A stretch of DNA of 64,000 nucleotides, taken from the NCBI GenBank assembly GCA_965207935.1, contig CBDBNM010000002.1, positions 397,692 to 461,691 on the forward strand. Reading direction: 5' to 3'. The translations under genes and the position numbers were made by a program. This DNA comes from Dehalococcoidia bacterium. GTDB taxonomy: Bacteria; Chloroflexota; Dehalococcoidia; Lucifugimonadales; JAGWBF01. Under the pieces are notes generated by a model. The model searched no databases, was not told where the DNA came from, and was given only the letters and a program-made list of their open reading frames with translations. Positions 2,705 through 43,282 of the stretch are shown piece by piece; position 1 is the stretch's first letter; every line of letters starts with the position of its first letter.

Positions 2705-4351
2705 TTGAGGCAACGAGTCGACCTGCAAACCATCCGCGGCGATGTCTTTGGAGGCATAGTTGCGGCCGTGGTGAGCCTGCCGCTTGCGCTGGCCTTTGGT
2801 GTGGCCTCGGGCCTTGGTGCTGCTTCAGGTCTGTATGGAGCGGTCGCCGTGGGCTTTTTTGCGGCGATATCCGGTGGGACCCGAACCCAGATATCAGGTC
2901 CCACCGGCCCTATGGCTGTGGCGATGGCGGTGGTGATCACCAGCCATGCGACGAGTCTCGCAGGTGCGTTTACGATTGTCATCCTGGCGGGGCTGATACA
3001 GATCATGCTGGGCGTACTGCGCATCGGCCGGTTCGTCGCCTACACGCCCTACTCTGTGATATCCGGGTTCATGTCCGGAATCGGCCTGATTATCATACTG
3101 GTACAGACGCTGCCCTTTTTGGGGTCAGACATCGCCAGTGGAGGGCCGATGGGAGCGGTCCGCGCCTGGCCGGCCGCCATAAGCGACGTGAATTTCAGTG
3201 CGCTGGCCATCGCGGTCTCCACTCTCGTGGTGGTCGTGGCCTGGCCATCCCAGCTCAGGAAGCTTATGCCCCCAGCGCTTGTGGCGCTCATATTCGGCAC
3301 GCTGCTGGGCGTATTTTGGTTGAGCGAAGCCCCGGTAATCGGAAAAGTTCCGACCGGCCTGCCAGAATTGCAACTGCCCGACCTTTCGACAGGCAACCTT
3401 TTTCACATCATCTATCCTGCCGTGACGCTCGCACTGCTCGGCTCTATCGACACCCTGCTGACCTCTTTGGTAGCTGATTCGATGACGCGCACTCGTCACA
3501 TGCCCAATCGCACGCTGGTGGGCCAGGGCGTTGGCAACATGGCCGCCGGCTTCATAGGTGGATTGCCAGGTGCTGGAGCCACAATGGGTACTGTGGTGAA
3601 CATACGGGCAGGCGGCAAGACGCCTCTTTCGGGAGTGGTTTCGGCGCTGATTCTGCTCGCGATTGTGCTTGGGCTGGGGAGATATGTTGAGGATGTCCCG
3701 CACGCGGTCCTCGCTGGCATCCTGATGAAGGTCGGTTGGGACATAATCGACTGGCGATTCATGACCAGGATATTCCGTGTTCAGCACGAACATCTCATTG
3801 TGATGGCTGTGACTCTCGGGCTGACGGTGTTCGTGGACCTGGTCACAGCGGTGACCATAGGTCTCATCATTGCCGGAATGGCCAGCGCACGCCAGTTCGA
3901 GCGGTTCGAACTCGACAGCGTGGTCTCGGTACCGCTGCTGGATCGGAATTTCCTGTTTACCGGGGGGAATAGAGGCGATGAGGGTGAGTGCCGGGAAGAC
4001 GAGGAGTGGGACGAATTCTCCGCGCACGTAGGGCTTGTAGCGCTGAAGGGGACCTTCTCGGTCGCGTCCGCGCACAAGCTCATGAACACGATCAGCTCCG
4101 ACATCCAGGAACATCAGGTCGTCATCTTCAATTTTACGGATACCATCTACATGGACGACAGCGCCGCTCTTGTTGTTGAGCAGTTGATCGATACGGCCAT
4201 AAAGCAGGATACCGGCTGCATAATCCTGGGGCTGGCCGGCCAGCCCGCTGTCACTCTCAAGGCGCTCGACGTACTGCGGCAGGTTCCGGGAAAGAACGTG
4301 GTAACGACCCTGGACGAGGCGAGAGACGCTGCGGCAGCGATGCTCAAGTAG
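2705..4351 (+). CDS. SulP family inorganic anion (sulfate/bicarbonate) permease with C-terminal STAS domain
   Basis: 548 aa with N-terminal GGIVAAVVSLPLALAFGVASG and TQISGPTGPMAV motifs and many TM segments. The soluble C-terminal ~120 aa look STAS-like (VVIFNFTDTIYMDDSAALVVEQL). Confidence 0.85.
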   Translation: MRQRVDLQTIRGDVFGGIVAAVVSLPLALAFGVASGLGAASGLYGAVAVGFFAAISGGTRTQISGPTGPMAVAMAVVITSHATSLAGAFTIVILAGLIQIMLGVLRIGRFVAYTPYSVISGFMSGIGLIIILVQTLPFLGSDIASGGPMGAVRAWPAAISDVNFSALAIAVSTLVVVVAWPSQLRKLMPPALVALIFGTLLGVFWLSEAPVIGKVPTGLPELQLPDLSTGNLFHIIYPAVTLALLGSIDTLLTSLVADSMTRTRHMPNRTLVGQGVGNMAAGFIGGLPGAGATMGTVVNIRAGGKTPLSGVVSALILLAIVLGLGRYVEDVPHAVLAGILMKVGWDIIDWRFMTRIFRVQHEHLIVMAVTLGLTVFVDLVTAVTIGLIIAGMASARQFERFELDSVVSVPLLDRNFLFTGGNRGDEGECREDEEWDEFSAHVGLVALKGTFSVASAHKLMNTISSDIQEHQVVIFNFTDTIYMDDSAALVVEQLIDTAIKQDTGCIILGLAGQPAVTLKALDVLRQVPGKNVVTTLDEARDAAAAMLK

Positions 4352-5339: not shown

Positions 5340-5536
5340 CCCGCTCCTCCTAATGCCAGCTATCGGACTCGTCCCAGCCTATAGCCGTCCCCCAGCCCAG
5401 TCAACATCAGGCCCCGTACACCAGTCACCCTTGACCGGGAAACGGGCGCACCCTACGATGGTGTTCCGTTCCAGGCCCGGATGGGGCCGAAAAGGCGCAT
5501 GGGGGAGTCCACTGCTGCAAGAAAAAGGAGGTTGTC

Positions 5537-6454
5537 ATGGAGTGGGAGTACGAACTGGTTGCCGAATGCGGTCGGCTTACCGAAGGCCCCGTCTGGGACG
5601 GAGAAACCCTCCTGTTCAGCCACATCCCGGGCAGCAGGATCATGCGGTACGACCCCGATTCGGGGGCCTGCACCGAGTTCCGGACCGACACCAACCACAT
5701 CAACGGGCTGAACTTCGACACTCAGGGTAGGCTGTACGGGTGCTGTTCGGGGGGACGCTCCATCGTGCGCCTGGAGCCCGACGGCTCAACCACCACCGTC
5801 GTTGACCGCTGGGAAGGACTGCGCTTCAACACCCCCAACGACCTGGCCCTGGACAGCAAGGGTCGCATCTGGTTCACCAATCCCTGGAACGAAGGCAATA
5901 TCGACCCCAGCGAAAGCATGGAGATGGACCACGAAGAGGCCTTCCGGGCAGACCCCCAGCCCGACGGCAGCTTCAGCATCTCCAGGGTCACCTTCGACAC
6001 CACCAAGACCAACGGCATCCTGGTGTCTCCCGATGAGACCATCCTGTACGTGGCCCAGAGCGACGGCGTGTCAGGACGCACCCGTGAGCTCAGAGCCTAC
6101 CCCATCCAGGCCGACGGCTCTCTTGGGCCGTACACCCTGCTCCACCAGTTCGGGGAGGACCACAGGGGTCCCCAGCGGGGCATCGACGGCATGTGCCTCG
6201 ACAGCGAGGGGAACATCATCGCCACGGCGGGTATCAACACCAGCGGCCCCGGCCCCATGATCTACGTCTTCGAAGCGCCCAGCGGTCGGGTGCTGGAGAC
6301 CCACCGGGTGCCCGACGGCGTGAATACCCCGACGAACTGCGCTTTCGGCGGGCCGGACCTGTCCACCTTGTACATCACCTCGGGCCAGGGGCACCTTCTG
6401 AAGGTCGGCAACACGGGCCGCCGTGGGTGGATCCTCTGGCCCCCGGCGAAGTAG
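5537..6454 (+). CDS. SMP-30/gluconolactonase/LRE family beta-propeller hydrolase
   Basis: 305 aa with EGPVWD, NGLNFD, FNTPNDLALDSKGRIWFTN and PTNCAFGGPDLSTLYITS, all characteristic of SMP-30 lactonases. AAGGAGG RBS upstream. Confidence 0.8.
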   Translation: MEWEYELVAECGRLTEGPVWDGETLLFSHIPGSRIMRYDPDSGACTEFRTDTNHINGLNFDTQGRLYGCCSGGRSIVRLEPDGSTTTVVDRWEGLRFNTPNDLALDSKGRIWFTNPWNEGNIDPSESMEMDHEEAFRADPQPDGSFSISRVTFDTTKTNGILVSPDETILYVAQSDGVSGRTRELRAYPIQADGSLGPYTLLHQFGEDHRGPQRGIDGMCLDSEGNIIATAGINTSGPGPMIYVFEAPSGRVLETHRVPDGVNTPTNCAFGGPDLSTLYITSGQGHLLKVGNTGRRGWILWPPAK

Positions 6455-6517
6455 CGGCGGAGGGGCCTAAAGCCAGGAGAGGCTCAGGCATCACGTAAGC
6501 CGGAGCGGCGGGGTCCG

Positions 6518-6709
6518 CTATACCTGGTAGCGCTGGAGGAGCTGGCGGGCGATGACCAGGCGCTGGATCTCGTTGGTGCCCTCGCCGATGATCATCAGGG
6601 GCGCATCCCTGTAGTAGCGCTCAATGGGGTTCTCCTTGATGTACCCGTAGCCCCCGAATATGCGCATCGCCTCCAGAGTTACCTCGGCGCATATCTCGCC
6701 GGCGAACAG
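6518..6709 (-). repeat. Direct repeat copy A (192 bp) of acyl-CoA dehydrogenase 3' end
   Basis: Hand alignment with 10466..10657 has no gaps and 14 mismatches in 192 nt (about 93% identity). 13 mismatches are synonymous and 1 is Gly/Ser. Homology ends abruptly after GGCGAACAG (6701..6709). Confidence 0.9.
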
Positions 6710-6730
6710 TAGCAGGAATGCGCCTCTCAT
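6518..6730 (-). pseudogene. Displaced 3' fragment of acyl-CoA dehydrogenase (last 63 codons) with an 8-codon novel N-terminus
   Basis: The translation ...[62 protein letters not shown] is identical over 59 aa to the C-terminus of the intact gene at 10466..11626. Its ATG (6730..6728) overlaps the TAA of the 969-aa gene as TAATG. Confidence 0.85.
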
Positions 6731-9639
6731 TAGTTGTCAAGGGTCAGCAAGTCGAAGCGTCCCCTTTTTAGCAGGTTCTCGCGAGCGCGCTCCGCATTTG
6801 CTCGAACGGTGGAATCTGCGCTATCTAGACCTGCCTTCAGGATTCTCGTGGCAGGCTCCGTCATAATGTAAAAGGAATCGCCTCCCAATTTGTCAGTTAA
6901 CTTAGCGAAGCACTCAACCACGATTTCAGCGTTACGAGGCAGAAGCTCGGTTAACGTTTCGACCTGCCCGTATATCTCCCTGGTATCAGAAAGCCCAGTA
7001 TCGAGGATTCTCGAAAAGGCATCCAACCGCCATTCTTCATCCAGGCATGGCGCTTCCAGCCAGCGTGAAAACCTCGCGAGCTCCTTCGCGTCGCCTGCCT
7101 CAAGACGCCATTCGAAGAAAGACATCAACCTGTCATTGAGGTCCTTATCCAAATGCTTGCCGGTGTTCCTCAGAATGAACCCTATATGGTTAAACAGATT
7201 TCCCCAATACTCGGTTTCAGGGCCAGTCTGTTGATAGAATCGTTCTATAAGGCTCTCAGGTCCTTTGAGGGGGTAATGGCCCCACAAGAAGTAAGCAAAT
7301 AGGTGCTGACCAAGAGTGTCAACGAAGGTGTCCAGAGGATGATCCCGTAACTCAAGGTTAGCAAGGTGTATCAGTGCAAACGCGAAGTCGTCTCTCAGGA
7401 CATTGAACATTGGGCCGTTGGGATGCGTGTAGCGGAGCAGTGTGCCAAACCCCGTCCGCCATCCAGGCAGGGAGCCCTGTGGGAACACGTCCTGCCTGTG
7501 TTCTACAGCCCACGCCTCATTCAACCCAAGCAAACGTCCATAGTTAAACCCCAAGATCGCGTATTCCGGTAACGTTAAGGGGATCGTGGCTTCTGGCGTA
7601 AATCTCCCTTCCAAAGTGTCCATGACGAAGTGAATGTCGTCTTCTCTACCCTGCCTTCTCAACCACAATCCGAATCGGATCAAGCTTTCCAAGCCACGGC
7701 TTCGGGTGTTGTTGATCGCCTCGGCGAATTGATCGTTCCGGTCTGGGAATACCGGGTTATCCCCATCTAATCGCGCGTCGAACTGGGTACAAAGCGCATC
7801 CAAAAGCTTGGCCAATCGCACATGTGCAGAAACCGGCACGTCAACATCTTCTTCAACGCAGCTTCCCACCAAGTCCCCGACGGCGCGGCGTGCTGTCTGC
7901 CAGTGAGGCTTCTCTTTAGGTCGATCGTCGTATCCGTAACCTTCCTCTGGTTCCTGGTCAGGGTGAGACATTACCCATTGGCAAAACTCTAGACAATGTT
8001 CCAGTTCGTCGAAGTTACCCTCACTCATGTGTTCCTGCATTCCCGCAACCATTGCTCGCACGTAAATTGGTCGTTCAATCTTATCCCGGTGGTCAAGCCA
8101 GTAGCGTAGCCTTGCCTTATGCGGGAGCACCAGGTCCTTGAAGAAGGTTTGAAAAGTTTCAGCCAAGGCCTCGACGTTAACCTCCGTTAGCCAACTTTCC
8201 TCGTCATCTGCACTCTCGTACCTGTGCTCCGAGTCCCAATCGTTAATGAAGACGAGCAACTCTTCATCGGGTAGGGCAGCGAGGTCTTCTAGCGACCTTG
8301 GGCTTCGACGTGCGACCACTCCACCTCTTGCGTATCCAATTTGCAAGTAGTCGTCGTCAGCTATCTGCCTGTCATGTCCATCTTCCAATTGACGATAATA
8401 GTCTAGATATTCGTCAAATAGCACGCACTCAAAGGGTTTAAACTGCATCCTGTGGAAGTTGCGCCGAAGATGCTCAAGCTGCTCTGGGGTCAATGCTTCA
8501 CTGTCATACTGTCTCTTCGGACCGCTCAGGAAGAGGTCGAATATCCCACTTAGCTCCTCCCTGCTAAGCAACTCTGTACCGAAGCGTTCACATCCGCTAC
8601 GCACCATTTGTTGAAACTCGAAATGATGTGGCCACACGTCGTAGTGTTCTTGCATTAGTATGAAGTCGCGAATCAGAGGCTTCGTCTGCTCGCTTGGATA
8701 TAGGGCGGCAAGGTGTTGTTGCAAACGATTAAAGAGCCTCCATCGGTGAACACGTAATCGCTCGAGCAACTCAGGTATTAGGTCAGGAGCTTGTTTAAAC
8801 ACTCTCTCGCAAGCAACGGTTAGCATGTGAACCAGTAACTCTGCAGGCTCCTCGTCTTCTACCCCACTACCCGAACCACTAAGGCGCGGGCACCAAATCT
8901 CCGAATAGTCTTGATCCGTACCTTGTTCTAGGTGGTCTTGATGTGTGCTTAACCGTATCATCTCAACGGTGGCATCTACTAAGGCCAGCGCAACTTTGAG
9001 TGGTTCCCTTTCTGATAGTGGGATTACTCCTTTCTCTAGCACCTCACGATAGTTCCACGTGTCGACCGAGGGGGTAGGTCGAAGTAGGGTCGTCCAATCT
9101 TCTGGGTTCTGCCTGCGGCGCAGTTGTTTGTCCTCAGCGGCAGGATCCGGAACAAATTTAACCAGGGCTTGCACAAGCTCCAAAGCAACCGAGTTTTCGT
9201 TTTCGGTCACCCAGTGAAATAGTAACTCGGAAAACTTACGGGTAAGGAACCAGGGATTAGCTCCACCTGATTTGAGCAGTATAGGCTTGAGTCTTGCAGA
9301 GTGGACGCCGGGAAGTTGCAACGCGATCTCGATAATTCCCAACCGGACCATCGGATTCTCGACCTCGGGGAGCTGTAGAACGACTTCCACAACTTCATCG
9401 GGAACTTCCCGAACAATGTTCTTCAGATACTCAAGCTCAGGCCAAAGAGGGAATTGGTTCGAACCATCGGGGAGATCGATCGGGCCCGGAGGGGATTCAA
9501 AATATCCGCGCTCCACTAAAGGCTGCAGCCACAAAGGATTCCTTAGCTGTGAGAAGAAATACCGACGGTCGTTCTCCTTCTTGGCTGACGAAAGAGCCCT
9601 TTCTACAAGTTCATCCGTTGGCTTCTTCCAAGATGTCAT
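6730..9639 (-). CDS. Hypothetical 969-aa protein, apparently all-alpha/repeat-like, acidic and Trp-rich; no catalytic or NTP-binding motif recognised
   Basis: A long uninterrupted ORF in low-GC DNA has a strong coding likelihood. The start ATG at 9639 is preceded by TAAGGGG and overlaps the upstream gene by 29 nt. I found no Walker A, DEAD/H, HNH, PD-(D/E)xK or recombinase motif by eye. The N-terminus reads [26 protein letters not shown]...[13 protein letters not shown]. Confidence 0.8.
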
Positions 9640-10273
9640 GGAGACCCCTTAGTCGTTCAAATTCGCTACTGGCCGCAACGTACAGCAGCCCGTCGAGGGT
9701 TTGAAAATGCTCTTCAACGTCGAATGCTGCTATTTGACCATAGCCCGATTCGCGGATGTGGGCAAATTCAAAGAACCCTTTCTTGGTGCGCCTCCATTCC
9801 TGTACGAAATTGGAGGGGACTCGGTCTATAGACTCGTAATCTAGGAGTTCGTTGAAGAAGATTGTTTCCGATTCGTTTGCTCTCGCTCGCCCCTTCTTGT
9901 GGTCATCGATCAGATCCTTAACCGTCTGGCAAATATCATACGGAATTGTATGCCCTCCATCAGGATCGTCAGGCGTCATGAAACCTCTACCTGTCCATTC
10001 GTCCTTCCATTCGCTTTGTAGTTTGTCGACGCGCTGGGCATATTGGACTTGACTTCTTTGATTGCCCGAGATGGTCGGTCCCAGTCCGTTCATGATTTCC
10101 CTGCCAGCATGAGCAACAAATGTAATGAAACCAGGTGGTTTCCACTTCAAAAGGAACAAGGCACCTTCGTACACATCGGCGTATACTGGCAACACCAGCG
10201 TCTCCCTAAGCCAGTCTAGGACGCGTTGTTGCTCGGGCGTTAGGGCCATTTCAGAGTGAAGCAATGCTGGCAT
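9611..10273 (-). CDS. Hypothetical 220-aa protein, first gene of the islet operon
   Basis: The ORF has the same low-GC codon usage as the 969-aa gene and overlaps it by 29 nt. No recognised domain. The C-terminal RLRGLH fits only the minimal Rx4H pattern, which is weak. No obvious SD upstream; the alternative start is at 10249. Confidence 0.7.
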   Translation of the reverse strand: MPALLHSEMALTPEQQRVLDWLRETLVLPVYADVYEGALFLLKWKPPGFITFVAHAGREIMNGLGPTISGNQRSQVQYAQRVDKLQSEWKDEWTGRGFMTPDDPDGGHTIPYDICQTVKDLIDDHKKGRARANESETIFFNELLDYESIDRVPSNFVQEWRRTKKGFFEFAHIRESGYGQIAAFDVEEHFQTLDGLLYVAASSEFERLRGLHDILEEANG

Positions 10274-10465
10274 GTAAGTTCAATGTAATCAACAGTATGT
10301 TACCGCAGATTCTGGACTCCTATTCGACAATCTGCTCAAGAAACTGTAAGCCATAGGGTGGAGGACGTGGGGGAGCTCGTCGTGATCTTCGGTGTCTTTG
10401 CCTGCTTCACATATTTGCTAGGCAACAGGCAGAGCCTGCGCGCGGGCTTAGTCACCCAGGGACCT

Positions 10466-10657
10466 CTACACCTGGTAGCGCTGGAGGAGCTGGCGGGCGA
10501 TGACGAGGCGCTGGATCTCGTTGGTGCCCTCGCCGATTATCATCAGAGGCGCATCTCGGTAGTAGCGCTCGATGGGATTCTCCTTGATATATCCGTAGCC
10601 CCCGAAGATGCGCATCGCCTCCAGGGTCACCTCGGCGCATATCTCGCTGGCGAACAG
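10466..10657 (-). repeat. Direct repeat copy B (192 bp), the functional 3' end of the intact acyl-CoA dehydrogenase
   Basis: See copy A at 6518..6709. Confidence 0.9.
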
Positions 10658-11626
10658 CTTGGCCATTCCCGCTTCCAGGTCAACCCTCAGGCCCTGGTCC
10701 TTCTTCTCGGCGGCCTTGTAGGTCAGCAGGCGGGCCGCCTCTATCTTCGTCCCCATGTCCGCCAGCTTGAGCTGGATGGCTTGGTGGCGGGAGATGGGCG
10801 ACCCGAAGGTGCGCCGGCCCTGGGCGTACTTGATGGCCGCTTCGAAGGCGGCCGTGGCCACGCCGACAGCGCGGGCTGCCACGTTGATGCGACCAGTCTC
10901 CAGACCGGCCATCACCTGCTGGAAGCCCTGGCCCTCCACCCCTCCCACCAGGTTGTCGGACCCGACCCGGAAGTTGTCGAAGATCAGCTCACAGGTGTCC
11001 AAGCCCCGGTATCCCAGCTTGTCCAGGTGCCTGCCCACCTCGAAGCCTTTCCCGCCCTTCTCTACGATGAAGCAGCTTATCCCTTCGTGGGGAGGAGTGG
11101 CGTCCTTGTTGGTCTTGGTTATCAGGGCGAAGGTGTCCCCGTGCTGCCCATTGGTGATGAACATCTTGGTGCCGTTGATCAGGTACTCTTCGCCGTCGCG
11201 GGTTGCGGTCAGCTCTATGGCCTGCACATCGCTTCCGGCGTTGGGTTCGGTCAGGGCGAGCCCGCCCCGCTTTTCGCCGCGGGCCATGGCGGGCAGGAAC
11301 CGGGCCTTCTGCTCTTCGGTCCCGTAGTGGGTAACCACGTAGGTCATGATGTGATGGGTGCCGATAATGCCGCTAATGCTCATCCAGCCCTTGCACAGCT
11401 CTTCGAAGATCATGGCGAAAGTGGTGTAGTCCAGCCCCATGCCGCCGTACTCTTCGGGGATGGTTATGCCAAAGAGGCCCATCTCCTTCATCTTTTCGAC
11501 CAGCTCCAGGGGGACGATGTCGTTGCGCTCGTACTCCTGGACGATGGGCTCCACATCCCGCCGGACAAACTCTCGCACCATGTTGATGATCTGGGTGCGA
11601 GCTTCCTCAGGTGTTCTGGTTGTCAC
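10466..11626 (-). CDS. Acyl-CoA dehydrogenase (short/medium-chain type)
   Basis: ACAD hallmarks are present: GLALTEPNAGSD, the FITNG region and the C-terminal [23 protein letters not shown]. The track ORF extends to 11689. I prefer the GTG at 11626 because GAGGAGGAAGC lies 9 nt upstream and the resulting ~386 aa length is typical. Confidence 0.9.
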   Translation of the reverse strand: MTTRTPEEARTQIINMVREFVRRDVEPIVQEYERNDIVPLELVEKMKEMGLFGITIPEEYGGMGLDYTTFAMIFEELCKGWMSISGIIGTHHIMTYVVTHYGTEEQKARFLPAMARGEKRGGLALTEPNAGSDVQAIELTATRDGEEYLINGTKMFITNGQHGDTFALITKTNKDATPPHEGISCFIVEKGGKGFEVGRHLDKLGYRGLDTCELIFDNFRVGSDNLVGGVEGQGFQQVMAGLETGRINVAARAVGVATAAFEAAIKYAQGRRTFGSPISRHQAIQLKLADMGTKIEAARLLTYKAAEKKDQGLRVDLEAGMAKLFASEICAEVTLEAMRIFGGYGYIKENPIERYYRDAPLMIIGEGTNEIQRLVIARQLLQRYQV

Positions 11627-11793
11627 CAAGAGCTTCCTCCTCGATAACGGTGACCGTGATGCAGCTATTCTAGCGAGGGAGGCTGGCAAAGGTCTAGGTT
11701 CCGGGCCTCTACTTCAATTGCTCTCCAGCAAGCAGTCCGAATATAATTGGCCTAAGTTAGACCCTAGAGTTTACTGGCCCGGCCTTCTACGCT

Positions 11794-12583: not shown

Positions 12584-13777
12584 ATGGCGGGAGTCCTGCA
12601 GGACAAGAACATCGTCCTGGGTGTTACGGGGAGCATCGCCTGCTACAAGGCCCTGGACCTGGCCAGCAAACTCACCCAGGCAGGGGCCGGCGTGGACACC
12701 ATCATGAGCTACGGGGCAACCCAGTTCATCGCCCCCCTCGCCTTCCGCAGCCTCACCCACCGGCCCGTGACAGTCGATATCTTCGACCCGGACTCGGAGC
12801 TGAGCATCGAGCACGTTCAGCTAGCCGGGAGGGCGGACATTGTCGTCGTGGCCCCGGCCACCGCCCACTTCATTGCCAAGGTGGCTTACGGATTTGCCGA
12901 CGACCCCCTGACCACCACCATCCTGGCCACCCAGGCGCCCGTGCTTATCGCCCCTGCCATGGACGGGCACATGTACGAAAACCAGGCCACCCAGGACAAC
13001 ATCGAGAAGCTGAAGGCCAGGGGGATCACTTTCGTAGGTCCGGCCAGCGGGCACCTGGCCTCGGGACTTGTGGGCATGGGTCGGTTGGTGGAAGTCCCCC
13101 AGCTTATGGGGCACATTAGCGCCCTGCTGGGGAAAGACGGGGACCTGGCCGGACGCACCATAGTCGTCAGCGCAGGGGGCACCCAGGAGGCCATCGACCC
13201 CGTCCGGGTGATCACCAACCACTCGTCGGGAAAGATGGGCTACGCCCTGGCTGAGGCAGCCCGGGACCGGGGCGCCAGGGTGGTGCTCGTTTCGGCCCCA
13301 ACCGGCTTGGACGACCCGGCGGCGCTGGAGGTGGTGAAGGTACGCTCAGCCGTCGAGATGCGGGATGCTGTGCTGGCGGCGGTCAAAGGCGCCGACGCGC
13401 TGATAATGGCGGCGGCGGTGGCCGACTACCAGCCCGCCGACGTTGCAGGTCAGAAGATCAAGAAGGACAGCTCGGCATTGACCATCGACCTTGAAAGGAC
13501 GCCGGACATCCTCCAGGAGGCCCAGGGCAGCTTCCTCAGGATCGGCTTCGCTGCCGAGACCGAGGATCTGCTGGCGAACGCCAGGGACAAGCTGGAGCAC
13601 AAGGCCCTGGACCTGATCGTAGCCAACGATGTGTCCGCAGAGGGGTCGGGGTTCGGCGCCGATACCAATAAGGTCACCCTTGTCGGCAAGTCCGGGGAGG
13701 CGGAAGACCTGCCCCTGATGTCCAAGCAGGATGTGGCCCACCGCGTCCTGGACCGCGTAAAGGCGCTCCTGGGCTAG
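12584..13777 (+). CDS. coaBC: Bifunctional phosphopantothenoylcysteine decarboxylase / phosphopantothenate-cysteine ligase
   Basis: 397 aa with GVTGSIACYKALDL flavoprotein N-domain and ITNHSSGKMG and AAVADY ligase motifs. The start is 1 nt after the coaX stop. Confidence 0.9.
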   Translation: MAGVLQDKNIVLGVTGSIACYKALDLASKLTQAGAGVDTIMSYGATQFIAPLAFRSLTHRPVTVDIFDPDSELSIEHVQLAGRADIVVVAPATAHFIAKVAYGFADDPLTTTILATQAPVLIAPAMDGHMYENQATQDNIEKLKARGITFVGPASGHLASGLVGMGRLVEVPQLMGHISALLGKDGDLAGRTIVVSAGGTQEAIDPVRVITNHSSGKMGYALAEAARDRGARVVLVSAPTGLDDPAALEVVKVRSAVEMRDAVLAAVKGADALIMAAAVADYQPADVAGQKIKKDSSALTIDLERTPDILQEAQGSFLRIGFAAETEDLLANARDKLEHKALDLIVANDVSAEGSGFGADTNKVTLVGKSGEAEDLPLMSKQDVAHRVLDRVKALLG

Positions 13778-13939
13778 CTTAGCCCCGTGGGTTGGGGGAT
13801 GGACAAAGGGCGATTGTGCGTTGGGTGGTCAGGAAGGTAGCATGGTCCACGGGAGTGCACTAGCAGCGAAACAAACTTTCCCCCAGATTCGCCTGACTGG
13901 CAAATGCCCGATGGGTTGATCTGAGGAAGGTGATCCTTT

Positions 13940-15433
13940 ATGGCGGATCCCAACTTTGCCGACAAGACTATCTGGACCGGGGACAACCTGGACATCCTGC
14001 GGGGGATGAACTCGGAGTGCGTTGACCTAATCTACCTTGACCCTCCCTTCAACTCCAACCAGGACTACGCTGCGCCGGTAGGCAGCAAGGCAGCTGGCGC
14101 CGCTTTCAAGGACACCTGGACACTCTCAGATCTAGATGTCGCCTGGATGGGCCTGATCGCCGACGAGCAGCCCGCCTTAGCCCATGTGGTCAAGACAGCA
14201 GGCCTGACCCATGGCAAGGGAATGCAGAGCTACTTGACCATGATGGCTATCCGGCTGATGGAGATGCACAGGGCCTTGAAGCCAACCGGCAGCATTTATC
14301 TCCACTGCGATCCGACAGCCAGCCACTACCTTAAGATGCTGATGGATGCGGTGTTCGGTGTCGAGAACTTTAGAAATGAGATAATCTGGCGAAATACCGG
14401 GGCACACAATTTCGCTGACCGCTTCGGCCCAATCCATCAAGATATTCTGTTCTACGCGAAATCGAACCAATACAAACATAGAGCCATATATGGACCATAT
14501 TTGAAAGGCCATGTCGAAACTTACTTCAAGAAACAGGACGAACATGGCCGGTACTGGACTAACTCAATCCACGGTTCGGGAACTCGAAACGGCATGAGCG
14601 GTGAACCATGGCGAGGGTATGACCCTACCCCGTTTGGTCGCCATTGGGCCGTTCCGAGCGCATTAGTTTTGGCTTTTGGGATTGATCCTGACCTATCACA
14701 ACATGAAAAATTGGACGCTCTCTATGATTTGGGTCTAATCGACCTACCGGAGACGACAGGGCAAAGTTTGCCGACATACCGACAATATCTAGACAGGAGT
14801 TCGGGCCAGCTTTTGCAAGACATTTGGGCATTTCAGCCGCATACTAGGGACTGTCTGTATGGGACGGAGGCGAGTATTGATGAGGATGTATGCTGGATCT
14901 CCCCTAGAGATAAGAAGGAACGCACTGGCTACCCAACACAGAAACCATTGGGCTTGCTGGAACGTATCATCCTAGCCTCCTCCGACGAGGGAGACCTGGT
15001 GCTCGACCCGTTTTGTGGCTGCGCCACAGCCTGCGTAGCTGCCGATAAGTTGGGGCGCAAGTGGGTTGGAATTGATATTTCCCCCAAGGCTGCAGAGCTG
15101 GTTAACCTACGGCTTCGGCAGGAGATGGGTAGCCTATTTCATCACGGATATGTGACTGCGCGTTCAGACATTCCCCAGCGCACGGATATTGAGAAGCCCA
15201 AGCCTTACAGGGAAAATAAGCATGTCCTCTTCGGCGAGCAAGAGGGTTTCTGTGCCGGTTGCAAGGGGGATTTTCCATTCCGCAATTTCACCGTCGACCA
15301 CATCGTCCCCAAGTCAAGAGGCGGGACGGATCACGTCGAGAACCTTCAGCTCCTTTGCATGGCATGCAATTCTCTGAAGGGGGACCGGCCCATGGAGTAT
15401 CTGATGGCGCAGTTGGCTGAGGCGAAACCCTAA
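13940..15433 (+). CDS. DNA methyltransferase (N6-adenine/N4-cytosine, beta-class order) fused to a C-terminal HNH endonuclease domain
   Basis: Motif IV IYLDPPFNS is near the N-terminus, and motif I LVLDPFCGCATACVAADKLGRKWVGIDIS lies at about residue 360. The HNH module is FCAGCKGDF...FTVDHIVPKSRGGTDHVENLQLLCMACNSLKGD. GGAAGGTGA RBS upstream. Confidence 0.85.
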   Translation: MADPNFADKTIWTGDNLDILRGMNSECVDLIYLDPPFNSNQDYAAPVGSKAAGAAFKDTWTLSDLDVAWMGLIADEQPALAHVVKTAGLTHGKGMQSYLTMMAIRLMEMHRALKPTGSIYLHCDPTASHYLKMLMDAVFGVENFRNEIIWRNTGAHNFADRFGPIHQDILFYAKSNQYKHRAIYGPYLKGHVETYFKKQDEHGRYWTNSIHGSGTRNGMSGEPWRGYDPTPFGRHWAVPSALVLAFGIDPDLSQHEKLDALYDLGLIDLPETTGQSLPTYRQYLDRSSGQLLQDIWAFQPHTRDCLYGTEASIDEDVCWISPRDKKERTGYPTQKPLGLLERIILASSDEGDLVLDPFCGCATACVAADKLGRKWVGIDISPKAAELVNLRLRQEMGSLFHHGYVTARSDIPQRTDIEKPKPYRENKHVLFGEQEGFCAGCKGDFPFRNFTVDHIVPKSRGGTDHVENLQLLCMACNSLKGDRPMEYLMAQLAEAKP

Positions 15434-15459
15434 ATGTTGCGGCGGATAAGACGAGCTAT

Positions 15460-15479
15460 GCGTGCCAGAAGAGGCACGC
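15460..15479 (+). terminator. Hairpin GCGTGCC-AGAAGA-GGCACGC downstream of the methyltransferase gene
   Basis: 7-bp GC-rich stem 27 nt after the stop codon. No U-tract. Confidence 0.3.
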
Positions 15480-15585
15480 GAAATCTGGGGCATGGCCATG
15501 TTTCGCAAGCAAAGGCCGCGGTCCGAGCATTTTCACAGGGTAAGTCAAAACCGAAAAGTGGCCAGGGCAAGAGGAAACGTCGCCA

Positions 15586-16044
15586 ATGAACTTCCGATCG
15601 AACCCTGACGGCAGCAGAACCATGACCGTAAGCGAAAGTGAGAGTCAAGCATACCTTCTCTTGGGACTATTGGCATCGCTAGCCGGCCGCAGAGAATTGA
15701 TGGACGAACTAAAGAACGGGAATAAGTCCCTCGACGATCGCATAGCTGGCGGGATGACGGGATGGAACGCAGGTGAAATTCCCTCAGATGAGATGTCAAG
15801 AATGGAGGCTTTCAGACACGCCCTTGTCCACGGGCTCTGCATAGTAGCCGAAGACGGGGGCATCTTCATTTCCGATGAGAAGTATGGCGAGGACGACTCA
15901 CGAAGTCACTTATCATTGTCCCTTGTCGAGCTCCAAGAAATGGCGGGCGCGTGGGTAGAATGGTTGGCACCGCCGATCGTTATTGATCGTTATATGGCCG
16001 CAGGACACCCGCACCCCATCCAGGTGTCCATAACCCCGAAGTAA
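15586..16044 (+). CDS. Hypothetical 152-aa protein (orphan)
   Basis: ORF with AGAGGAAAC upstream and no recognised motif. Its codon usage resembles the neighbouring methyltransferase gene. Confidence 0.45.
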   Translation: MNFRSNPDGSRTMTVSESESQAYLLLGLLASLAGRRELMDELKNGNKSLDDRIAGGMTGWNAGEIPSDEMSRMEAFRHALVHGLCIVAEDGGIFISDEKYGEDDSRSHLSLSLVELQEMAGAWVEWLAPPIVIDRYMAAGHPHPIQVSITPK

Positions 16045-16089
16045 GCCGATTTCAAGGGCGAGCCCAACACATAGGGGCTACATCGGCAA

Positions 16090-16326
16090 GTGAGGATCGA
16101 ACCTGTGTCAGCAGTGGATGGACACCTCGGCGAGTTTGAACCTGTCGTCGACGGAATGGAGGAGCCAATGACCGAGGAATATCGAAAATTTGACCCAGCG
16201 GACTACATCAAGACCACGAAAGATGTCCAGGGGCTCCTCGATGCCTCTGCGGATGAGGACCCTGGGGACGGGGTCGTGATTCGAGCTGTGTTGAAGTACA
16301 TCGCCCAAAGACACCGTTCGTCTTGA
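16090..16326 (+). pseudogene. Truncated HigA-like addiction-module antidote protein (N-terminal half only, HTH missing)
   Basis: KFDPADYIKTTKDVQGLLDASADEDPGDGVVIRAVLKYIAQRHR matches the pattern wD-a-eyL...i..YL.aaled.Dp..i..AL.diArArG of COG3636/TIGR02684-type antitoxins (from memory). It stops where the helix-turn-helix should begin. There is no RelE/HigB-like partner upstream. Confidence 0.5.
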
Positions 16327-16383
16327 GTAATACCTGGGAACTTATCATCCATTAGATGCGTCTAAGAACTTAGGGAGGGCGCA

Positions 16384-17334
16384 ATGAAACGACTCACGAT
16401 TATCTTCGCAGTTCTGCTGGCCATCATCCTGGCAGCCTGCCAAAACCCGACGCCAACCCCGACGCTGGCGCCGACATCCACACCGACACCCACCCCCACG
16501 GCGGTACCACCGACGCCGACCGCCACCCCTGCACCTACGGCGACGCCCACCATCAGCCCAGGAACCGCTGCCTACAATGCCTTCTTGGAGATGCTTGAGG
16601 AGGCCCCTGCTGACTTGCGCGCTGAGACCAAAGCCTGCTTGATGGACCTCTTCGAGGAGGACCCATCTGTGGCTGAGTCGTTCACCACGGGGGAGGACCT
16701 GAGCGGGCCGGCGATGCTCAGCTTTCTGGCCTGCCTGACGCCCGAGGAGGCCGCAGCGCTGACGCCTCCCGGTGAAGGCCCTCCGCCGGATGTTGCCGGC
16801 TTGGCCTGTCTGGCCGAGAAGCTTGAGGGCGCCCCCGAGAAAGACCGTATCCTCGCCGTCCTCTCAGGCGCCGACCCATCGGGGGAAGGGCTGACGCTGG
16901 AGGAAAGCGCGGTGCTTGGTGGGGCTGTGGAAGCCTGTGACCTCGATACCGGTTTCACCTTCCCTGGAGGAGAGGGCGCCGAAGAGAATCCGTTGGCCGG
17001 TACAGAGTGGAGGCTGGTCCTCGTGCTGGGCAGCGCCCTCCCTCCCACCGGGGTGGTGGGGGGCGACCCAACCGCCGAGTTTACAGCCATGGATATGATG
17101 GGATGGACAGGCTGCAACTCCTACGGCGCCAGATACAGCATACAAGGAGAGGAACTGCTCCTTGACAACCTGGCGTGGACGGATGCGGGCTGCCCGTCTC
17201 AGGAGCTAACCCAGCAGGAACAGCGGATGCAGGACTCGCTGGCGACGGTGGAGGAGTTCGAGATTTCAGGGGACCAACTTACGCTTCACAGCGAAGGCGG
17301 CGAGGCGCTGGTCTTCGAGCGAATCAGGCAGTAG
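16384..17334 (+). CDS. Lipoprotein with Pro/Thr-rich linker and C-terminal META (HslJ-like) domain
   Basis: Signal peptide with lipobox LAAC (MKRLTIIFAVLLAIILAAC), then a PTPTPT low-complexity linker. The C-terminus reads LAGTEWRLV...GCNSYGARYSIQGEELLLDNLAWTDAGCP, which is typical of META domains. Confidence 0.75.
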   Translation: MKRLTIIFAVLLAIILAACQNPTPTPTLAPTSTPTPTPTAVPPTPTATPAPTATPTISPGTAAYNAFLEMLEEAPADLRAETKACLMDLFEEDPSVAESFTTGEDLSGPAMLSFLACLTPEEAAALTPPGEGPPPDVAGLACLAEKLEGAPEKDRILAVLSGADPSGEGLTLEESAVLGGAVEACDLDTGFTFPGGEGAEENPLAGTEWRLVLVLGSALPPTGVVGGDPTAEFTAMDMMGWTGCNSYGARYSIQGEELLLDNLAWTDAGCPSQELTQQEQRMQDSLATVEEFEISGDQLTLHSEGGEALVFERIRQ

Positions 17335-17420
17335 TCGCAAGAGTCTCTGGGGTAGAGGGCCAGAGGCAAAGGCCCGTCGCGCGGACCGGGATCTGAGATG
17401 GAAGGCGCTGCTGGGCTAGC

Positions 17421-18878
17421 TCAGCCTCGCAGGTTGGGGTGGCGGGCAGCCTTGGCTTCGTCCAGGCGGGTGACCGGGGTGGTGTGGGGAGCGCCGGTCA
17501 CCATCTCCGGGTCCTCTGCAACTTCCCTGTCGATGGCCTTCATCACATCGATGAAAGCATCCAGGGTCTCCTTGCTCTCGGCCTCGGTGGGCTCGATCAT
17601 CAGGGCTTCTTCGACGATGAGGGGGAAGTACATGGTGGGGGAGTGGAACCCGTAGTCCAGCAGCCTCTTGGCGATGTCCAGGCCCTTGACGCCCTTGGCC
17701 CGCTGGTCCTTGGACGAAAGTATGACCTCATGCATGCACCGGCGGTCGTAGGGTAGGTGATAGGTGTCCTTCAGAGCTTCCAGCAGGTAGTTGGCGTTGA
17801 TCACCGCATCGCCGCTGATCTGCTCCAGCCCCGATGCCCCCAAGCTCCTTATGTAGGTGTAGGCCCGCACCAGCACGCCGAAGTTGCCGTGGAACCCACC
17901 TACACGTCCGATGCTATCGGGGGGAGACTCCAGGGAGTACGCATCTGAGCCGTTCTCTCCGTTCTTGACCACGATGGGCGACGGCAGATAGGGCAGCAGG
18001 GTGTCCGAGACGCATACCGGCCCTGCGCCCGGCCCGCCTCCACCGTGGGGGGTGGAGAAGGTCTTGTGAAGGTTGAGGTGGACAACGTCGAACCCCATGT
18101 GCCCCAGCTTGGCGCGACCAAGGAGGGCGTTCATGTTTGCGCCGTCGCCGTACACCAGCCCACCGGCCCGGTGCACCATGTCGCAGAGATCGACGATGTT
18201 GCTGTTGAACAACCCCAGGGTGTTGGGCTGGGTTATCATCACCCCGGCCAGCCTGTCCGATGCCAGCTCGGCCATCCGGTCCAGGTCTATGTTGCCCCTG
18301 TCGTTGGACGGCACGCTGACGACCTCGAAACCGGACATCGCGGCGGAAGCCGGGTTAGTGCCGTGGGCGCTGTCGGGTATGGCCACCACGGTGCGCCCAT
18401 CGTCGCCCCGCTGCTTATGGTATGCCCGGATCATCAGCATGCCGCACAGCTCACCCTGGGCGCCCGCCAGGGGAGCGAGGCTGGTTCCCTTCATGCCGGT
18501 GATCTCCGCCAGGTAACCCTGAAGCATGTACATCAGCTGCAGGCTACCCTGGGCCTGAGCGTCGGTCTGGCGGGGATGGGAAGCTGCGAAGCCGGGCATG
18601 AATGCCATCTCTTCGTTCAGCTTGGGGTTGTACTTCATGGTGCAACTGCCCAAGGGGTAGAAGTTGGTGTCTATGGAGTAGTTCAGGCGGCTCAGGTTGG
18701 TGAAGTAGCGCACCAGCTCCGGTTCGCTGAGCTCAGGAAGGGGCAGGTCGTCCCTGAGCATCTGCTCTGAAAGGAGGGGCTGCTCAGGAACATCCAGGTC
18801 GGGAAGGTTGGCGCCTACCCTGCCCGGAGTGCTCCTTTGCATCAAAGTGCGCCTGTCGAAGGAGGGCAGCGCGCTCAT
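17421..18878 (-). CDS. gcvPB: Glycine dehydrogenase (decarboxylating) subunit 2
   Basis: 485 aa with FYPLGSCTMKYNP and the PLP-Lys context HLNLHKTFSTPHGGGGPG. Confidence 0.92.
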   Translation of the reverse strand: MSALPSFDRRTLMQRSTPGRVGANLPDLDVPEQPLLSEQMLRDDLPLPELSEPELVRYFTNLSRLNYSIDTNFYPLGSCTMKYNPKLNEEMAFMPGFAASHPRQTDAQAQGSLQLMYMLQGYLAEITGMKGTSLAPLAGAQGELCGMLMIRAYHKQRGDDGRTVVAIPDSAHGTNPASAAMSGFEVVSVPSNDRGNIDLDRMAELASDRLAGVMITQPNTLGLFNSNIVDLCDMVHRAGGLVYGDGANMNALLGRAKLGHMGFDVVHLNLHKTFSTPHGGGGPGAGPVCVSDTLLPYLPSPIVVKNGENGSDAYSLESPPDSIGRVGGFHGNFGVLVRAYTYIRSLGASGLEQISGDAVINANYLLEALKDTYHLPYDRRCMHEVILSSKDQRAKGVKGLDIAKRLLDYGFHSPTMYFPLIVEEALMIEPTEAESKETLDAFIDVMKAIDREVAEDPEMVTGAPHTTPVTRLDEAKAARHPNLRG

Positions 18879-41627: not shown

Positions 41628-41634
41628 TGGTCCT

Positions 41635-42276
41635 CTAGTAGTGACAGGTGGTGCAATCGGTGGGGGCATCGTAATCACGATGGCAGTCCACGCAATCGCC
41701 CATCTTCAAGCTCCGTTCCTGTTTGATCTTGGTCATCTCCCGCACATCGCCGTGACACATGGTGCACACCTGTTCCACTGGCGATATCCCGTTCGCCTCA
41801 GCAGCGTCGATCACACTCTGCTTCTGACTGAAGAATCTTACGTGGGGTTCGTGGGCGAACTGCACATGGTCGGGGATGCGGTGCACCTTCTCCCAATCGA
41901 TAGGCTGGGGTGTGGCCCCAGGCACGATCACCCCCGAACTATCCCTCCCCGCGTACTCCAGCAGTTTAGCGATCTCAACGTTGGACTCGCCGGTGACGGT
42001 GGTATGGCAGATGAGGCACTGCTCCACCGCAGGAACGGTGGCTGATTCGCCGGTTACGACGTTCCGGTGGCAGAACTCGCAGGCGATGCCTTCGTCATCG
42101 ACGTGGATGTCGTGGGGAAAGGCGATGGGCTGGTCGGGGCCGCCTGCACCGAATCCGAATAGTGGTGTGGACCACCACGCCGTCAGAACGTAAATGAGCA
42201 CGAACAGCATGATGCCGGCTGACGCCAGTCCTCCCAGGGCCAGGGGCACTATTCCTATTCGAGGCAGCCTTGGCAT
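41635..42276 (-). CDS. Membrane-anchored pentaheme cytochrome c (ActA-like)
   Basis: Five CxxCH motifs (CEFCH, CLICH, CTMCH, CVDCH, CTTCH) and an N-terminal TM. Confidence 0.85.
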   Translation of the reverse strand: MPRLPRIGIVPLALGGLASAGIMLFVLIYVLTAWWSTPLFGFGAGGPDQPIAFPHDIHVDDEGIACEFCHRNVVTGESATVPAVEQCLICHTTVTGESNVEIAKLLEYAGRDSSGVIVPGATPQPIDWEKVHRIPDHVQFAHEPHVRFFSQKQSVIDAAEANGISPVEQVCTMCHGDVREMTKIKQERSLKMGDCVDCHRDYDAPTDCTTCHY

Positions 42277-42391
42277 CAGGAGATGTCCATCACCCTTCGA
42301 ACAACGATATTTTCTCTGCGGATCGGTTTCAAACTAGTCCGCCTTAGGAACGCAGAGCAGGCCGGCGCCCGGTGGAGCGCGCAAGGCCTGC

Positions 42392-42691
42392 TCATATCCA
42401 GAACCTGTTGTACACAGCCTCCAGCAGCTGGGTGTTTCGCACCGTCAGCACCATGAAAAACACCGCCAAGCCTATAAGCCCGATGACTCCCAGGTACATG
42501 GGGCGGCGCAGCATAAGGAACTTTGACGGCAGGTGTCCCGAGGCGACCAGGGATGGGATGACAGCGTGGGCGGTGACGAAGGTGAAAGCTATAAGTACGA
42601 TGCAGAAAAAATAGGCCCACAACCAGTGGAGCCAATTTCCGATATCCGACCAGTGGCCCGCATCGACTATGGCCGGGTCTACTTCGGGCAT
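42392..42691 (-). CDS. Small hydrophobic protein (2-3 TM) upstream of ActA
   Basis: 99 aa with clear TM segments (WLWAYFFCIVLIAFTFVTAHAVIPSL, LGVIGLIGLAVFFMVL). The overlapping 164-aa ORF 42276..42770 is Arg/Pro-rich and looks non-coding. Confidence 0.5.
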   Translation of the reverse strand: MPEVDPAIVDAGHWSDIGNWLHWLWAYFFCIVLIAFTFVTAHAVIPSLVASGHLPSKFLMLRRPMYLGVIGLIGLAVFFMVLTVRNTQLLEAVYNRFWI

Positions 42692-42834: not shown

Positions 42835-42893
42835 AGCCAGGATTCAGGGTGGAGGCTAACTCCTACCCCAAGCTGGCAGCAAAGGGAGAACCA

Positions 42894-43273: not shown

Positions 43274-43282
43274 ACGCAATTC

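Follow-up and report, generated by a model that had tools for sequence, protein, structure and literature searches.

How does a two-gene cassette with no recombinase of its own come to lie between two diverged copies of the same gene end? The question is raised by the acyl-CoA dehydrogenase (ACAD) locus in a 64,000-nt stretch of DNA from an uncultured Dehalococcoidia bacterium (assembly GCA_965207935.1, contig CBDBNM010000002.1, positions 397,692-461,691), the whole of which was analysed and is called the window here. A sequence-only reading had taken the insert for a circular element that integrated by site-specific crossover at a short core. Its derived insertion, foreign 3' end, missing recombinase and twin insertion at mutL all stand; the site-specific core crossover is the part that is not supported. 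The features of the ACAD locus are:

5537..6454, plus strand: native convergent neighbour, an SMP-30/gluconolactonase-like gene (Pfam SGL; synteny)
6511..6709, minus strand: repeat copy A, an orphan ACAD 3' fragment continuous with the native downstream flank
6710..6729, minus strand: 20-nt junction between the cassette stop and the orphan
6730..9639, minus strand: cargo gene 2 (969 aa), overlapping gene 1 by 29 nt
9611..10273, minus strand: cargo gene 1 (220 aa), predicted all-alpha from its AF2 model
10340..10458, minus strand: spacer from the ACAD stop to the cassette, showing no homology on alignment to the native sequence that follows ACAD
10459..10657, minus strand: repeat copy B, the functional ACAD 3' end (last 189 coding nt, stop and 7 nt)
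10466..11629, minus strand: intact ACAD (start TTG at 11629 or GTG at 11626; Pfam Acyl-CoA_dh_N/M/1)

The ACAD gene has a GAGGAGG Shine-Dalgarno sequence upstream of its TTG and GTG starts, and its product is 99% identical in amino acid sequence to ACAD in the Dehalococcoidia MAGs OZ220675.1 and OY760073.1. Positions 6511-6709 and 10459-10657 form direct repeats that align without gaps at 92% identity (self-BLAST E = 8e-78). Copy B completes the gene and copy A is orphaned, as had been proposed; the orphan is the ORF 6518..6730, whose start ATG shares bases with the TAA that ends the 969-aa gene (TAATG). Ungapped alignment of the 192-nt repeat proper (6518-6709 and 10466-10657) reproduces the 14 mismatches previously counted, 12 at codon position 3 and two at position 1, of which 13 are synonymous and one is a Gly/Ser change. 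In simulations the probability of one or fewer non-synonymous changes was below 5e-5 when all 14 changes were random, and 0.0008 when only half of them were neutral in the orphan. Since the differences are almost all synonymous, the copies are alleles and not a decayed duplication; that is, they are the donor and recipient forms of the gene end and did not arise by duplication after the insertion. Purifying selection has acted on both copies, which makes one 3' end a foreign one that preserves an intact gene, as the sequence-only reading had held. They are equally near to related alleles (93-94%; copy B is 94.3% identical to the L001 allele and 93.8% to that of L002), which indicates that the donor was a related lineage, and sliding-window identity between the copies does not reveal which is native. 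Homology stops about 7 nt beyond the stop codon at the outer edge; at the inner edge nine identical bases are followed by its end at 6709/6710 and 10657/10658. Mismatches spread along the whole repeat, formerly read as the sign of a core at its edge, are the pattern expected of any donor-allele insertion.

In four related Dehalococcoidia genomes, an outgroup among them (L001, L003, L004 and L054), ACAD runs directly into the homologue of 6517..5523, and the SMP-30/gluconolactonase-like gene lies directly after ACAD in such genomes; the sequence downstream of copy A can be aligned with what follows ACAD in L001, L003 and L004. These are the empty-site alleles that had been predicted, and the window's arrangement is therefore a derived insertion. 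Four other genomes (L002, L005, L006 and L007) carry islands directly after ACAD without any repeat. The spacer beside copy B holds a 52-nt remnant of the L002 island (10358-10409, 88% identical to L002 12318-12369), so the copy-B side resembles a donor chromosome and not a dedicated attP.

The low GC of the insert is confirmed (0.51 against 0.63 in the flanks), and GC3 is 0.53-0.56 in the cargo against 0.75-0.89 in host genes. The cassette measures 3.7 kb, and neither of its two ORFs (220 and 969 aa) matches a Pfam family. Of the 969-aa protein's homologues, which number more than 187, none is named beyond "hypothetical"; the protein also has a partial PADLOC match to Dsr1, defence-associated sirtuin 1 (E = 2.2e-12; aa 443-751 against profile positions 731-1012 of 1227). 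The likeness to Dsr1, which concerns the cargo only, is thus to part of its C-terminal region. Dsr1 has an N-terminal SIR2 effector domain that neither cargo protein shares, and unlike Dsr1 the cargo has as partner a separate 220-aa protein, which is N-terminally fused in relatives. This smaller protein has no PADLOC match and 66 homologues, all unnamed; its AF2 model (pLDDT 80.7, eight helices) finds no fold match in the PDB. Its N-terminal motif is also present in the N-terminal domain of the fused homologues, which resembles pP_pnuc_1 weakly and mostly below threshold. The two-gene module is conserved: six further contexts hold it at 75-86% DNA identity, and the homology is confined to window positions 10339..6731. 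Elsewhere the module is found in defence islands, and the cassette family rides on elements with large serine recombinases (L083, L167), where some relatives adjoin tRNA-Met and have a repeated flanking motif; that motif is absent from the window. The cassette is foreign and horizontally mobile, and its function is probably phage defence.

The insert encodes no recombinase, as had been observed, and neither does the rest of the window. Pfam finds none among the cargo and low-GC3 window ORFs, PHROGs finds no integrase or transposase family among the other 40 window ORFs, and phmmer with tyrosine and serine recombinase seeds finds none in these 64 kb, the genome being at least 1.66 Mb long. The same seeds detect no recombinase within 10 kb of ACAD at 80 ACAD loci from genomes, the sole matches being the seed genes themselves in two cassette-context loci. 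ACAD 3' fragments are absent from viral contigs, and no cognate integrase-bearing element sharing the att site was found at the 80 ACAD loci or on viral contigs.

The second insertion noted by the sequence-only reading, at mutL, does have the same architecture:

43138..43276, minus strand: orphan mutL 3' fragment, continuous with the native downstream flank
43277..44615, no strand assigned: cargo of 1,339 nt, with a plus-strand polytopic-membrane-like ORF within 43521..44723
44616..44754, minus strand: functional mutL 3' end (gene 44622..46361)

The two mutL repeats are 92% identical, and the cargo ORF has no Pfam match. The cargo is absent from three related genomes that are empty at this site (L168, L169 and L170), and window positions 43276..40000 align with L168 and L169 from their position 7590 on, which is 133 nt before their mutL end. 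The window also has a third variable segment:

13760..17439, no strand assigned: variable segment with 38-nt direct repeats at 13760-13797 and 17402-17439
13940..15433: N6_N4 methylase-HNH fusion within the segment
16384..17334: META-domain gene within the segment

In its 38-nt repeats lie the 3' ends of the two convergent genes that flank it, and most of the segment is missing from L001 and L004. For the META gene the window has the donor-like arrangement, L001 the empty one and L002 the product, in which there are three nested copies of the 3' end of a 485-aa gene and an added GmrSD gene.

This architecture of an insert plus a duplicated gene end recurs across related genomes, with repeats of 38-313 nt at gene 3' or 5' ends and inserts as small as 292-642 nt; it is present in both short-read and long-read MAGs (L003, L012, L074/L068). 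The synonymous and non-synonymous differences between repeat copies number 13 and 1 at ACAD, 7 and 3 at mutL, 4 and 0 in L008, 9 and 0 in L011, and 4 and 2 in L012. Identical runs as long as 35 nt occur within the repeats of 120-313 nt. No boundary or terminal motif common to the recurring insertions was found, and at ACAD itself the repeat is 192 nt in the window's clade and 123 nt in another (L008 and L011), with unrelated boundary sequences. A toxin-antitoxin (TA) cassette is seen in three states: empty in L009 (ACAD-ANK), without an orphan in L007 (ACAD-TA), and as ACAD-TA-orphan-ANK in L008 and L011, two independent assemblies with the same insert. The product junction, L011 compared with L007, coincides with a microhomology of 5 nt (CAAGG), past which L007 diverges. 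For the window's own cassette no donor-type genome (ACAD then cassette, with no orphan) was found; at its junction CTGTT matches cassette relatives, weakly, the intervening 20 nt being only about 30% identical. For the window's own insertion, the mechanism favoured below depends chiefly on analogy with these related cases (TA and META).

Three other explanations of the locus were weighed. The idea that the ACAD 3' end was duplicated in tandem, ancestrally or in situ, and diverged later around a vertically inherited cargo has only the existence of a repeat to recommend it and is scarcely credible; the four empty relatives with their outgroup, a synonymous bias incompatible with neutral decay of an orphan, and a cargo GC of 0.515 in every host refute an ancestral tandem arrangement with vertical cargo. 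It is also very improbable that a chimeric join of strains made the diverged duplicate, as might be feared of a metagenome-assembled contig, given the identical architecture and insert in L008 and L011, the occurrence in MAGs of both read types, repeats that stop at stop codons and keep the reading frame, and the coherent composition of the cargo. Site-specific integration, by which a tyrosine integrase would have inserted a circular element at a core near CTGTTCGCC, its attP carrying a surrogate ACAD 3' end, is a more serious candidate that we nevertheless consider unlikely; the integrase would have acted in trans, as for CIMEs or satellites, or have been deleted later from a decayed island. 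The architecture fits integrase insertion into a gene 3' end (as for e14 at icd/icdC), the repeat reaches the stop codon in the manner typical of att identity blocks, relatives of the cassette lie beside tRNA-Met with large serine recombinases and a repeated flanking motif, and the recombinase search covered 64 kb of the genome, so that an integrase encoded elsewhere could act in trans. Yet that motif is missing here, neither the window nor the 10 kb around ACAD at the 80 loci shows a recombinase, and viral contigs have no ACAD 3' fragment. The crossover formerly placed at the core GGCGAACAG finds no support in repeats that vary from 38 to 313 nt, at ACAD itself between clades, and share no boundary motif. 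With many target genes and both gene ends involved, many dedicated integrases would be required; inserts of 292-642 nt cannot be autonomous, and in L007 the TA cargo stands without an orphan and shares microhomology with the product junction.

The empty sites, the missing recombinase, the recurrence and the donor and product cases favour, with a probability of roughly 0.58 and largely by analogy, a recombinase-independent, homology-anchored insertion-duplication resembling homology-facilitated illegitimate recombination (HFIR), with a donor from a related lineage, over site-specific integration at a core. The donor DNA would have been a piece of chromosome from a related Dehalococcoidia lineage with an ACAD allele about 7% different, comprising the 3' part of ACAD, a short remnant of the downstream island and the mobile two-gene cassette, and no site-specific recombinase would have taken part in its insertion. 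Homologous recombination within conserved ACAD would anchor one donor end, and the other, just beyond the cassette stop, would be joined illegitimately 192 nt before the recipient ACAD stop. ACAD would then be intact with the donor 3' end (copy B) and followed by the cargo, and the recipient 3' end (copy A) would be left orphaned on the native flank. The outer repeat edge would fall at the stop codon because homology between donor and recipient ends where the donor island begins, directly after the gene, and the insertions retained would be those that leave both neighbouring genes intact. HFIR of linear DNA, break repair templated by foreign DNA and followed by end joining, or a Campbell-type single crossover of a circularised fragment could each have been the pathway; all three would yield the identical product, and the choice of a recombination pathway is inferred. 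In laboratory experiments the usual outcome of HFIR is an insertion accompanied by a deletion and not by a duplication.

A circular sub-variant of the insertion-duplication just described, a self-propagating cassette in which RecA excises the cargo and one repeat as a circle that enters the same gene elsewhere by single crossover, has a small probability, which is counted within that of the preferred reading. Duplication is the default outcome of Campbell integration, the CAAGG microhomology could be the circle-closing junction of an L007-like donor, and the identical runs of up to 35 nt in the longer repeats also speak for it. On the other hand no circular form was seen, nor a second locus with the same cargo and repeat; natural transformation linearises DNA, 120-190 nt at about 93% identity is a poor RecA substrate, and repeats of 38-40 nt are too short.

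Several known systems share parts of this picture. Minimal mobile elements, or recombinase-free hotspot islets, are swapped by double homologous recombination in flanking core genes; they are small cassettes between conserved genes without machinery of their own, comparable to the post-ACAD islands of L002, L005, L006 and L007. A double crossover leaves no duplicated gene end, so the duplication here marks a one-sided event. The tRNA and tmRNA islands and their integrase-less att-flanked remnants (CIMEs and cargo-only remnants of the tycheposon type) also have direct repeats of a target 3' end, a reconstituted gene and arrays at one site. They rely on a conserved core and the integrase that matches it, whereas no integrase, core or cognate full element was found at the sites studied here. 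An exchange idea similar to that for minimal mobile elements has been put forward for TA islets (PMC13617665). That an element can supply the 3' end of a protein-coding target is already known from the e14 prophage at icd/icdC (PMC13626634). There e14 and phage 21 likewise insert in the 3' part of E. coli icd, bring a diverged substitute 3' end and leave an orphan C-terminal pseudogene, icdC, at the far end (PMC13626634), but e14, a prophage of 15 kb, encodes an integrase, uses a fixed att site and is excised on SOS induction, whereas the present 3.7-kb insert holds two genes, lacks an integrase and shows no fixed position of crossover. HFIR itself is well established, and it has been invoked to explain orphan arrays at T6SS and Rhs loci (PMC5361080; PMC2884548). 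The "sequential displacement" of V. cholerae T6SS effector-immunity genes and of Rhs/CDI orphan C-terminal arrays combines a one-sided homologous anchor with an illegitimate joint and no recombinase, as proposed here; in such arrays the newcomer adjoins the intact gene and older 3' fragments are pushed downstream, as in the nested copies of L002. The displaced fragment in our cases is a housekeeping gene end (ACAD, mutL and others) and not a variable toxin tip, the cargo consists of unrelated defence or TA genes after the stop codon, and the outcome is insertion with duplication in place of the replacement or deletion of HFIR-type arrays.

One may go further and imagine, in these streamlined and uncultured Dehalococcoidia, a recombinase-free mobile class, small defence or TA cassettes whose duplicated housekeeping-gene end serves as a portable homology arm, looped out as a RecA circle and re-inserted into the same gene of other lineages to give nested arrays at core-gene ends, but we think this quite doubtful. 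The cargo itself is a candidate defence system: the uncharacterised module is widespread, as two genes or in fused form, and is related to the C-terminal region of Dsr1. If the preferred insertion-duplication is true, these loci would be natural, replicated evidence from uncultured bacteria, spanning empty, donor-like and product arrangements, that one-sided homologous recombination places defence cassettes and other small cargo at core-gene ends. The process would need no integrase or transposase, and its scar, a diverged and mostly synonymous gene-end duplicate, could be searched for genome-wide as a measure of accessory-gene gain without mobile-element machinery in streamlined genomes.

The 3' end of the acyl-CoA dehydrogenase (ACAD) gene occurs twice in the window, as ungapped direct repeats with 92% identity (6511-6709 vs 10459-10657; self-BLAST E = 8e-78). 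Alignment and a count by codon position confirm the repeat pair that the sequence-only reading described: its 192 nt contain 14 mismatches, 12 at third and two at first codon positions, and only one of them, Gly/Ser, changes an amino acid. The features of the region are as follows.

10466..11626/11629, minus strand: ACAD gene, with Pfam N, M and C domains, a Shine-Dalgarno sequence and a start codon
10459-10657, minus strand: copy B, the functional ACAD 3' end
Between the repeat copies, minus strand: two overlapping cargo ORFs of 220 and 969 aa
6511-6709, minus strand: copy A, an orphan ACAD 3' end inside ORF 6518..6730

The GC content of the insert is 0.51 vs 0.63 in the flanks, and GC3 is 0.53-0.56 in the cargo genes and 0.75-0.89 in host genes. 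The ATG of the orphan ORF overlaps the TAA of the upstream 969-aa gene (TAATG), so translational coupling could yield a 70-aa peptide from the orphan fragment (window 6518-6732), or the overlap may be mere chance.

A scan in which each species was represented by one genome puts the window among the uncultured Dehalococcoidia. The ACAD proteins of loci L001 (OZ220675.1) and L002 (OY760073.1) are 99% identical to that of the window, and those of L003, L004 and L054 are 97%, 96% and 90% identical, respectively. In L001, L003, L004 and L054 the homologue of window 6517..5523 comes immediately after the ACAD stop codon, and this is the empty site that had been predicted; the sequence downstream of copy A aligns with these four loci, but that downstream of copy B does not. 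The window ACAD insertion is thus the derived state. A metagenome scan with ACAD found no conspecific empty allele, because no relative there exceeded 74% amino acid identity, and among those relatives (at most 74%) repeats of this kind are nearly absent from ACAD loci. Another variable patch, window 2543-4502, holds a SulP sulfate permease-STAS gene (2705..4351) and has no counterpart at the matching place in L001, where about 1.25 kb of different sequence is present.

A second insertion with the same architecture had also been proposed, and it too is borne out. Repeats of the mutL 3' end at 43138-43276 and 44616-44754 (92% identity) bracket 1,339 nt, and the site is empty in L168-L170 (the mutL loci of the L001 and L002 genomes and of a third relative), where window 48000..44616 abuts 43276..40000 and the 133-139 nt are present once only. 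The closest mutL relative, L170, has a different insert of about 4 kb (7968-12079; three unnamed ORFs, with internal 84-nt repeats) one gene farther downstream of the empty mutL site.

Neither cargo protein has a Pfam domain. The PADLOC Dsr1 profile matches the 969-aa protein over part of the profile's C-terminal region (E = 2.2e-12); the protein has more than 187 homologues, none informatively named, and no solved relative. Fused single-protein versions of the two-gene module (1140-1233 aa; P0030, P0033, P0043, P0052 and P0111) have an N-terminal domain that weakly resembles Pfam pP_pnuc_1 (predicted pPIWI-associating nuclease), mostly below threshold, and this domain and the 220-aa protein have a conserved N-terminal motif in common. 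The AlphaFold model of the 220-aa protein is an eight-helix bundle (pLDDT 80.7) for which a fold search gave no PDB match. The source-genome record gives only 122 aa (P0134) for this gene (9611-10273), yet the open frame spans 220 aa and its homologues have 211-220 aa; the start codon was probably miscalled. Look-ups by exact protein gave no record for the window ACAD or for the 969-aa protein.

The module is present with the same 29-nt overlap in six other contigs at 75-86% DNA identity, and as a partial copy in a seventh; homology is confined to window 10339..6731, stopping at the stop codon, and the GC content is 0.515 in every host. Its neighbours elsewhere include type I and type II restriction-modification, GmrSD, PLD nuclease, REase-ARP, Mrr and PIN toxin-antitoxin genes and IS elements and, in L083 and L167, a large serine recombinase whose element lies next to tRNA-Met. 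We infer that it is a mobile candidate defence module, with a split effector and a Dsr1-like sensor. In other hosts (L083 8897-8997; L084 120-147 and 4118-4149; L081 8122-8176) the cassette is a neighbour of tRNA-Met, and the motif GACTTGAC(A/G)AAATCAA(G/C)AACC comes after the CCA end of the tRNA; in L084 the motif recurs to either side of the cassette. The pattern resembles an att-type array carried by elements with large serine recombinases (L083, L167), and the motif is absent from the window. In L081, 190-nt direct repeats (3199-3388 and 7933-8121; 95%) adjoin the cassette and bracket 4.5 kb with an IS110-family transposase and ABC-transporter genes. A plasmid scan gave weak partial matches only, including module matches fused to AAA ATPases on haloarchaeal plasmids; a phage collection gave none, nor did viral-contig scans for the ACAD 3' fragment and for the cassette.

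Comparing each of the retrieved loci with itself shows that the architecture recurs.

L008 and L011: ACAD 3' end, 123 nt; cargo a 642-nt DUF4258 and MqsA-like toxin-antitoxin (TA) pair
L012: 3' end of the gene upstream of ACAD, 109 nt; cargo 521 nt
L002 3415-6994: 3' end of a 485-aa gene in three nested copies of 125, 40 and 146 nt; cargo a GmrSD gene (3749-5413) and a META-domain gene
L003 6098-7985: rhodanese upstream region and 5' end, 313 nt, 94%; insert 1,262 nt
L044: gene 5' end, 101 nt; cargo 445 nt
L019: gene 5' end, 155 nt; cargo 292 nt
L074 and L068 (Alphaproteobacteria): gene 3' end, 185 nt; cargo 1,070 nt
Window 13760-17439: 38-nt repeats (13760-13797 and 17402-17439; 87%) that include the 3' ends of both convergent flanking genes; 3.6 kb with an N6_N4 DNA methylase-HNH fusion (13940..15433), a 152-aa ORF and a META-domain gene

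L001 and L004 lack the greater part of window 13760-17439. The nested copies in L002 look like two successive insertion-duplications at one gene end, and L003 is a mirror-image, 5'-end form of the architecture, with L044 and L019 similar to it. In five of the six 3'-end cases no more than a few bases separate the end of the repeat from the stop codon; in L074 the repeat falls 12 nt short of it. No motif is common to the inner boundaries (CTGTTCGCC, GGAGCAAATGG, AAGGAGCTGCC, AGGCCCTGGCTCC and GGCCATCGAC) or to the cargo ends in the compared cases.

Differences between repeat copies are biased towards synonymous changes in the five pairs examined: the synonymous and non-synonymous counts are 13 and 1 for window ACAD, 7 and 3 for window mutL, 4 and 0 for L008 ACAD, 9 and 0 for L011 ACAD, and 4 and 2 for the 420-aa gene of L012. 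By simulation, 13 of 14 synonymous changes in ACAD has P < 5e-5 if all changes are random, and P = 0.0008 if only half of them are neutral in the orphan. The copies are alleles and not a decayed duplication; this bias and the empty sites led us to reject duplication in situ followed by decay, which we regard as extremely improbable, and an assembly artefact seems scarcely less so. A long target-site duplication made by a transposase was likewise rejected, as its two copies would be identical at first, with neutral decay of the orphan. Neither copy A nor copy B is the closer to the L001 and L002 alleles (both 93-94%), so one copy came from a related lineage at about the divergence of a sister species, and the foreign surrogate 3' end proposed earlier stands; sliding identity to L001-L004 shows no step marking a donor tract or the native copy.

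The best-supported reading, to which we give a probability of roughly 0.58, is a recombinase-independent, homology-anchored insertion-duplication. Homologous pairing in a conserved gene would anchor one end of the foreign DNA, and its far end would be joined illegitimately upstream of the recipient's stop codon; the repeat boundary would lie at the stop codon because donor-recipient homology ends there. Homology-facilitated illegitimate recombination (HFIR) of linear DNA, foreign-templated break repair and Campbell integration of a circularised fragment could all give this product. HFIR is experimentally established (references in PMC2884548) and is a proposed origin of the orphan arrays at T6SS, Rhs and CDI loci (PMC5361080). 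An integrase that acts in trans or has since been lost is a distinctly less probable source of the insertions, and a small share of the probability is assigned to no reading. The visible 64 kb of the genome leave room for a recombinase acting in trans. One site-specific system cannot account for the recurrence when the boundaries have no common motif, and many dedicated integrases, none visible, would be needed. Pfam finds no recombinase in the insert or among ten low-GC3 or flanking window ORFs, PHROGs finds no integrase or transposase family in the other 40 window ORFs, and phmmer with tyrosine and serine recombinase seeds finds none in the window or in 80 genome ACAD loci, its only matches being the seed genes themselves in two cassette-context loci. 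Scans of the region for Rfam families, tRNAs, promoters and terminators were uninformative. The sequence-only reading was right about an insertion, a surrogate 3' end, the lack of a recombinase in the insert and a second case, but its site-specific crossover of a circular element at a short core is not supported: mismatches along the whole repeat are expected for any donor-allele insertion and so say nothing about a core.

Donor-like and recipient-like arrangements can be compared with the products of insertion-duplication. For the TA cassette, in a 78% ACAD clade, an ankyrin-repeat (ANK) gene comes after ACAD in L009, the empty arrangement; L007 is ACAD-TA with no orphan; and L008 and L011 are ACAD-TA-orphan-ANK. 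The junction sequences (slash, junction) are

L007, cargo end: ...TTTGACCAAGG / CGCCTTCC
ACAD at -120: ...TATATCAAGG / AGCTGCCC
L011, product: ...TTTGACCAAGG / AGCTGCCC

and the TA join therefore lies within the 5-nt microhomology CAAGG. For the META gene, the window is donor-like (the 485-aa gene, then META, with no orphan), L001 is without META, and L002 has in order the 485-aa gene, GmrSD, a 40-nt gene-end copy, META, a 146-nt orphan and then L001-like downstream sequence. No donor genome was found for the window cassette itself. A spacer of about 120 nt by copy B holds a 52-nt remnant of the L002 island downstream of ACAD, and this match suggests donor chromosome on the copy-B side. The junction in the window and the cassette relatives have CTGTT in common, with weak support; it was downgraded as a microhomology, because the 20 nt that separate CTGTT from the stop codon can barely be aligned.

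A protein-coding target is not new in itself, and e14 at icd/icdC is an integrase-driven analogue (PMC13626634). What goes beyond the known cases is a scar that recurs at the ends of housekeeping genes within a single uncultured class, where the cargo is of defence and toxin-antitoxin type, and for which donor-like, empty and product arrangements are all observable.
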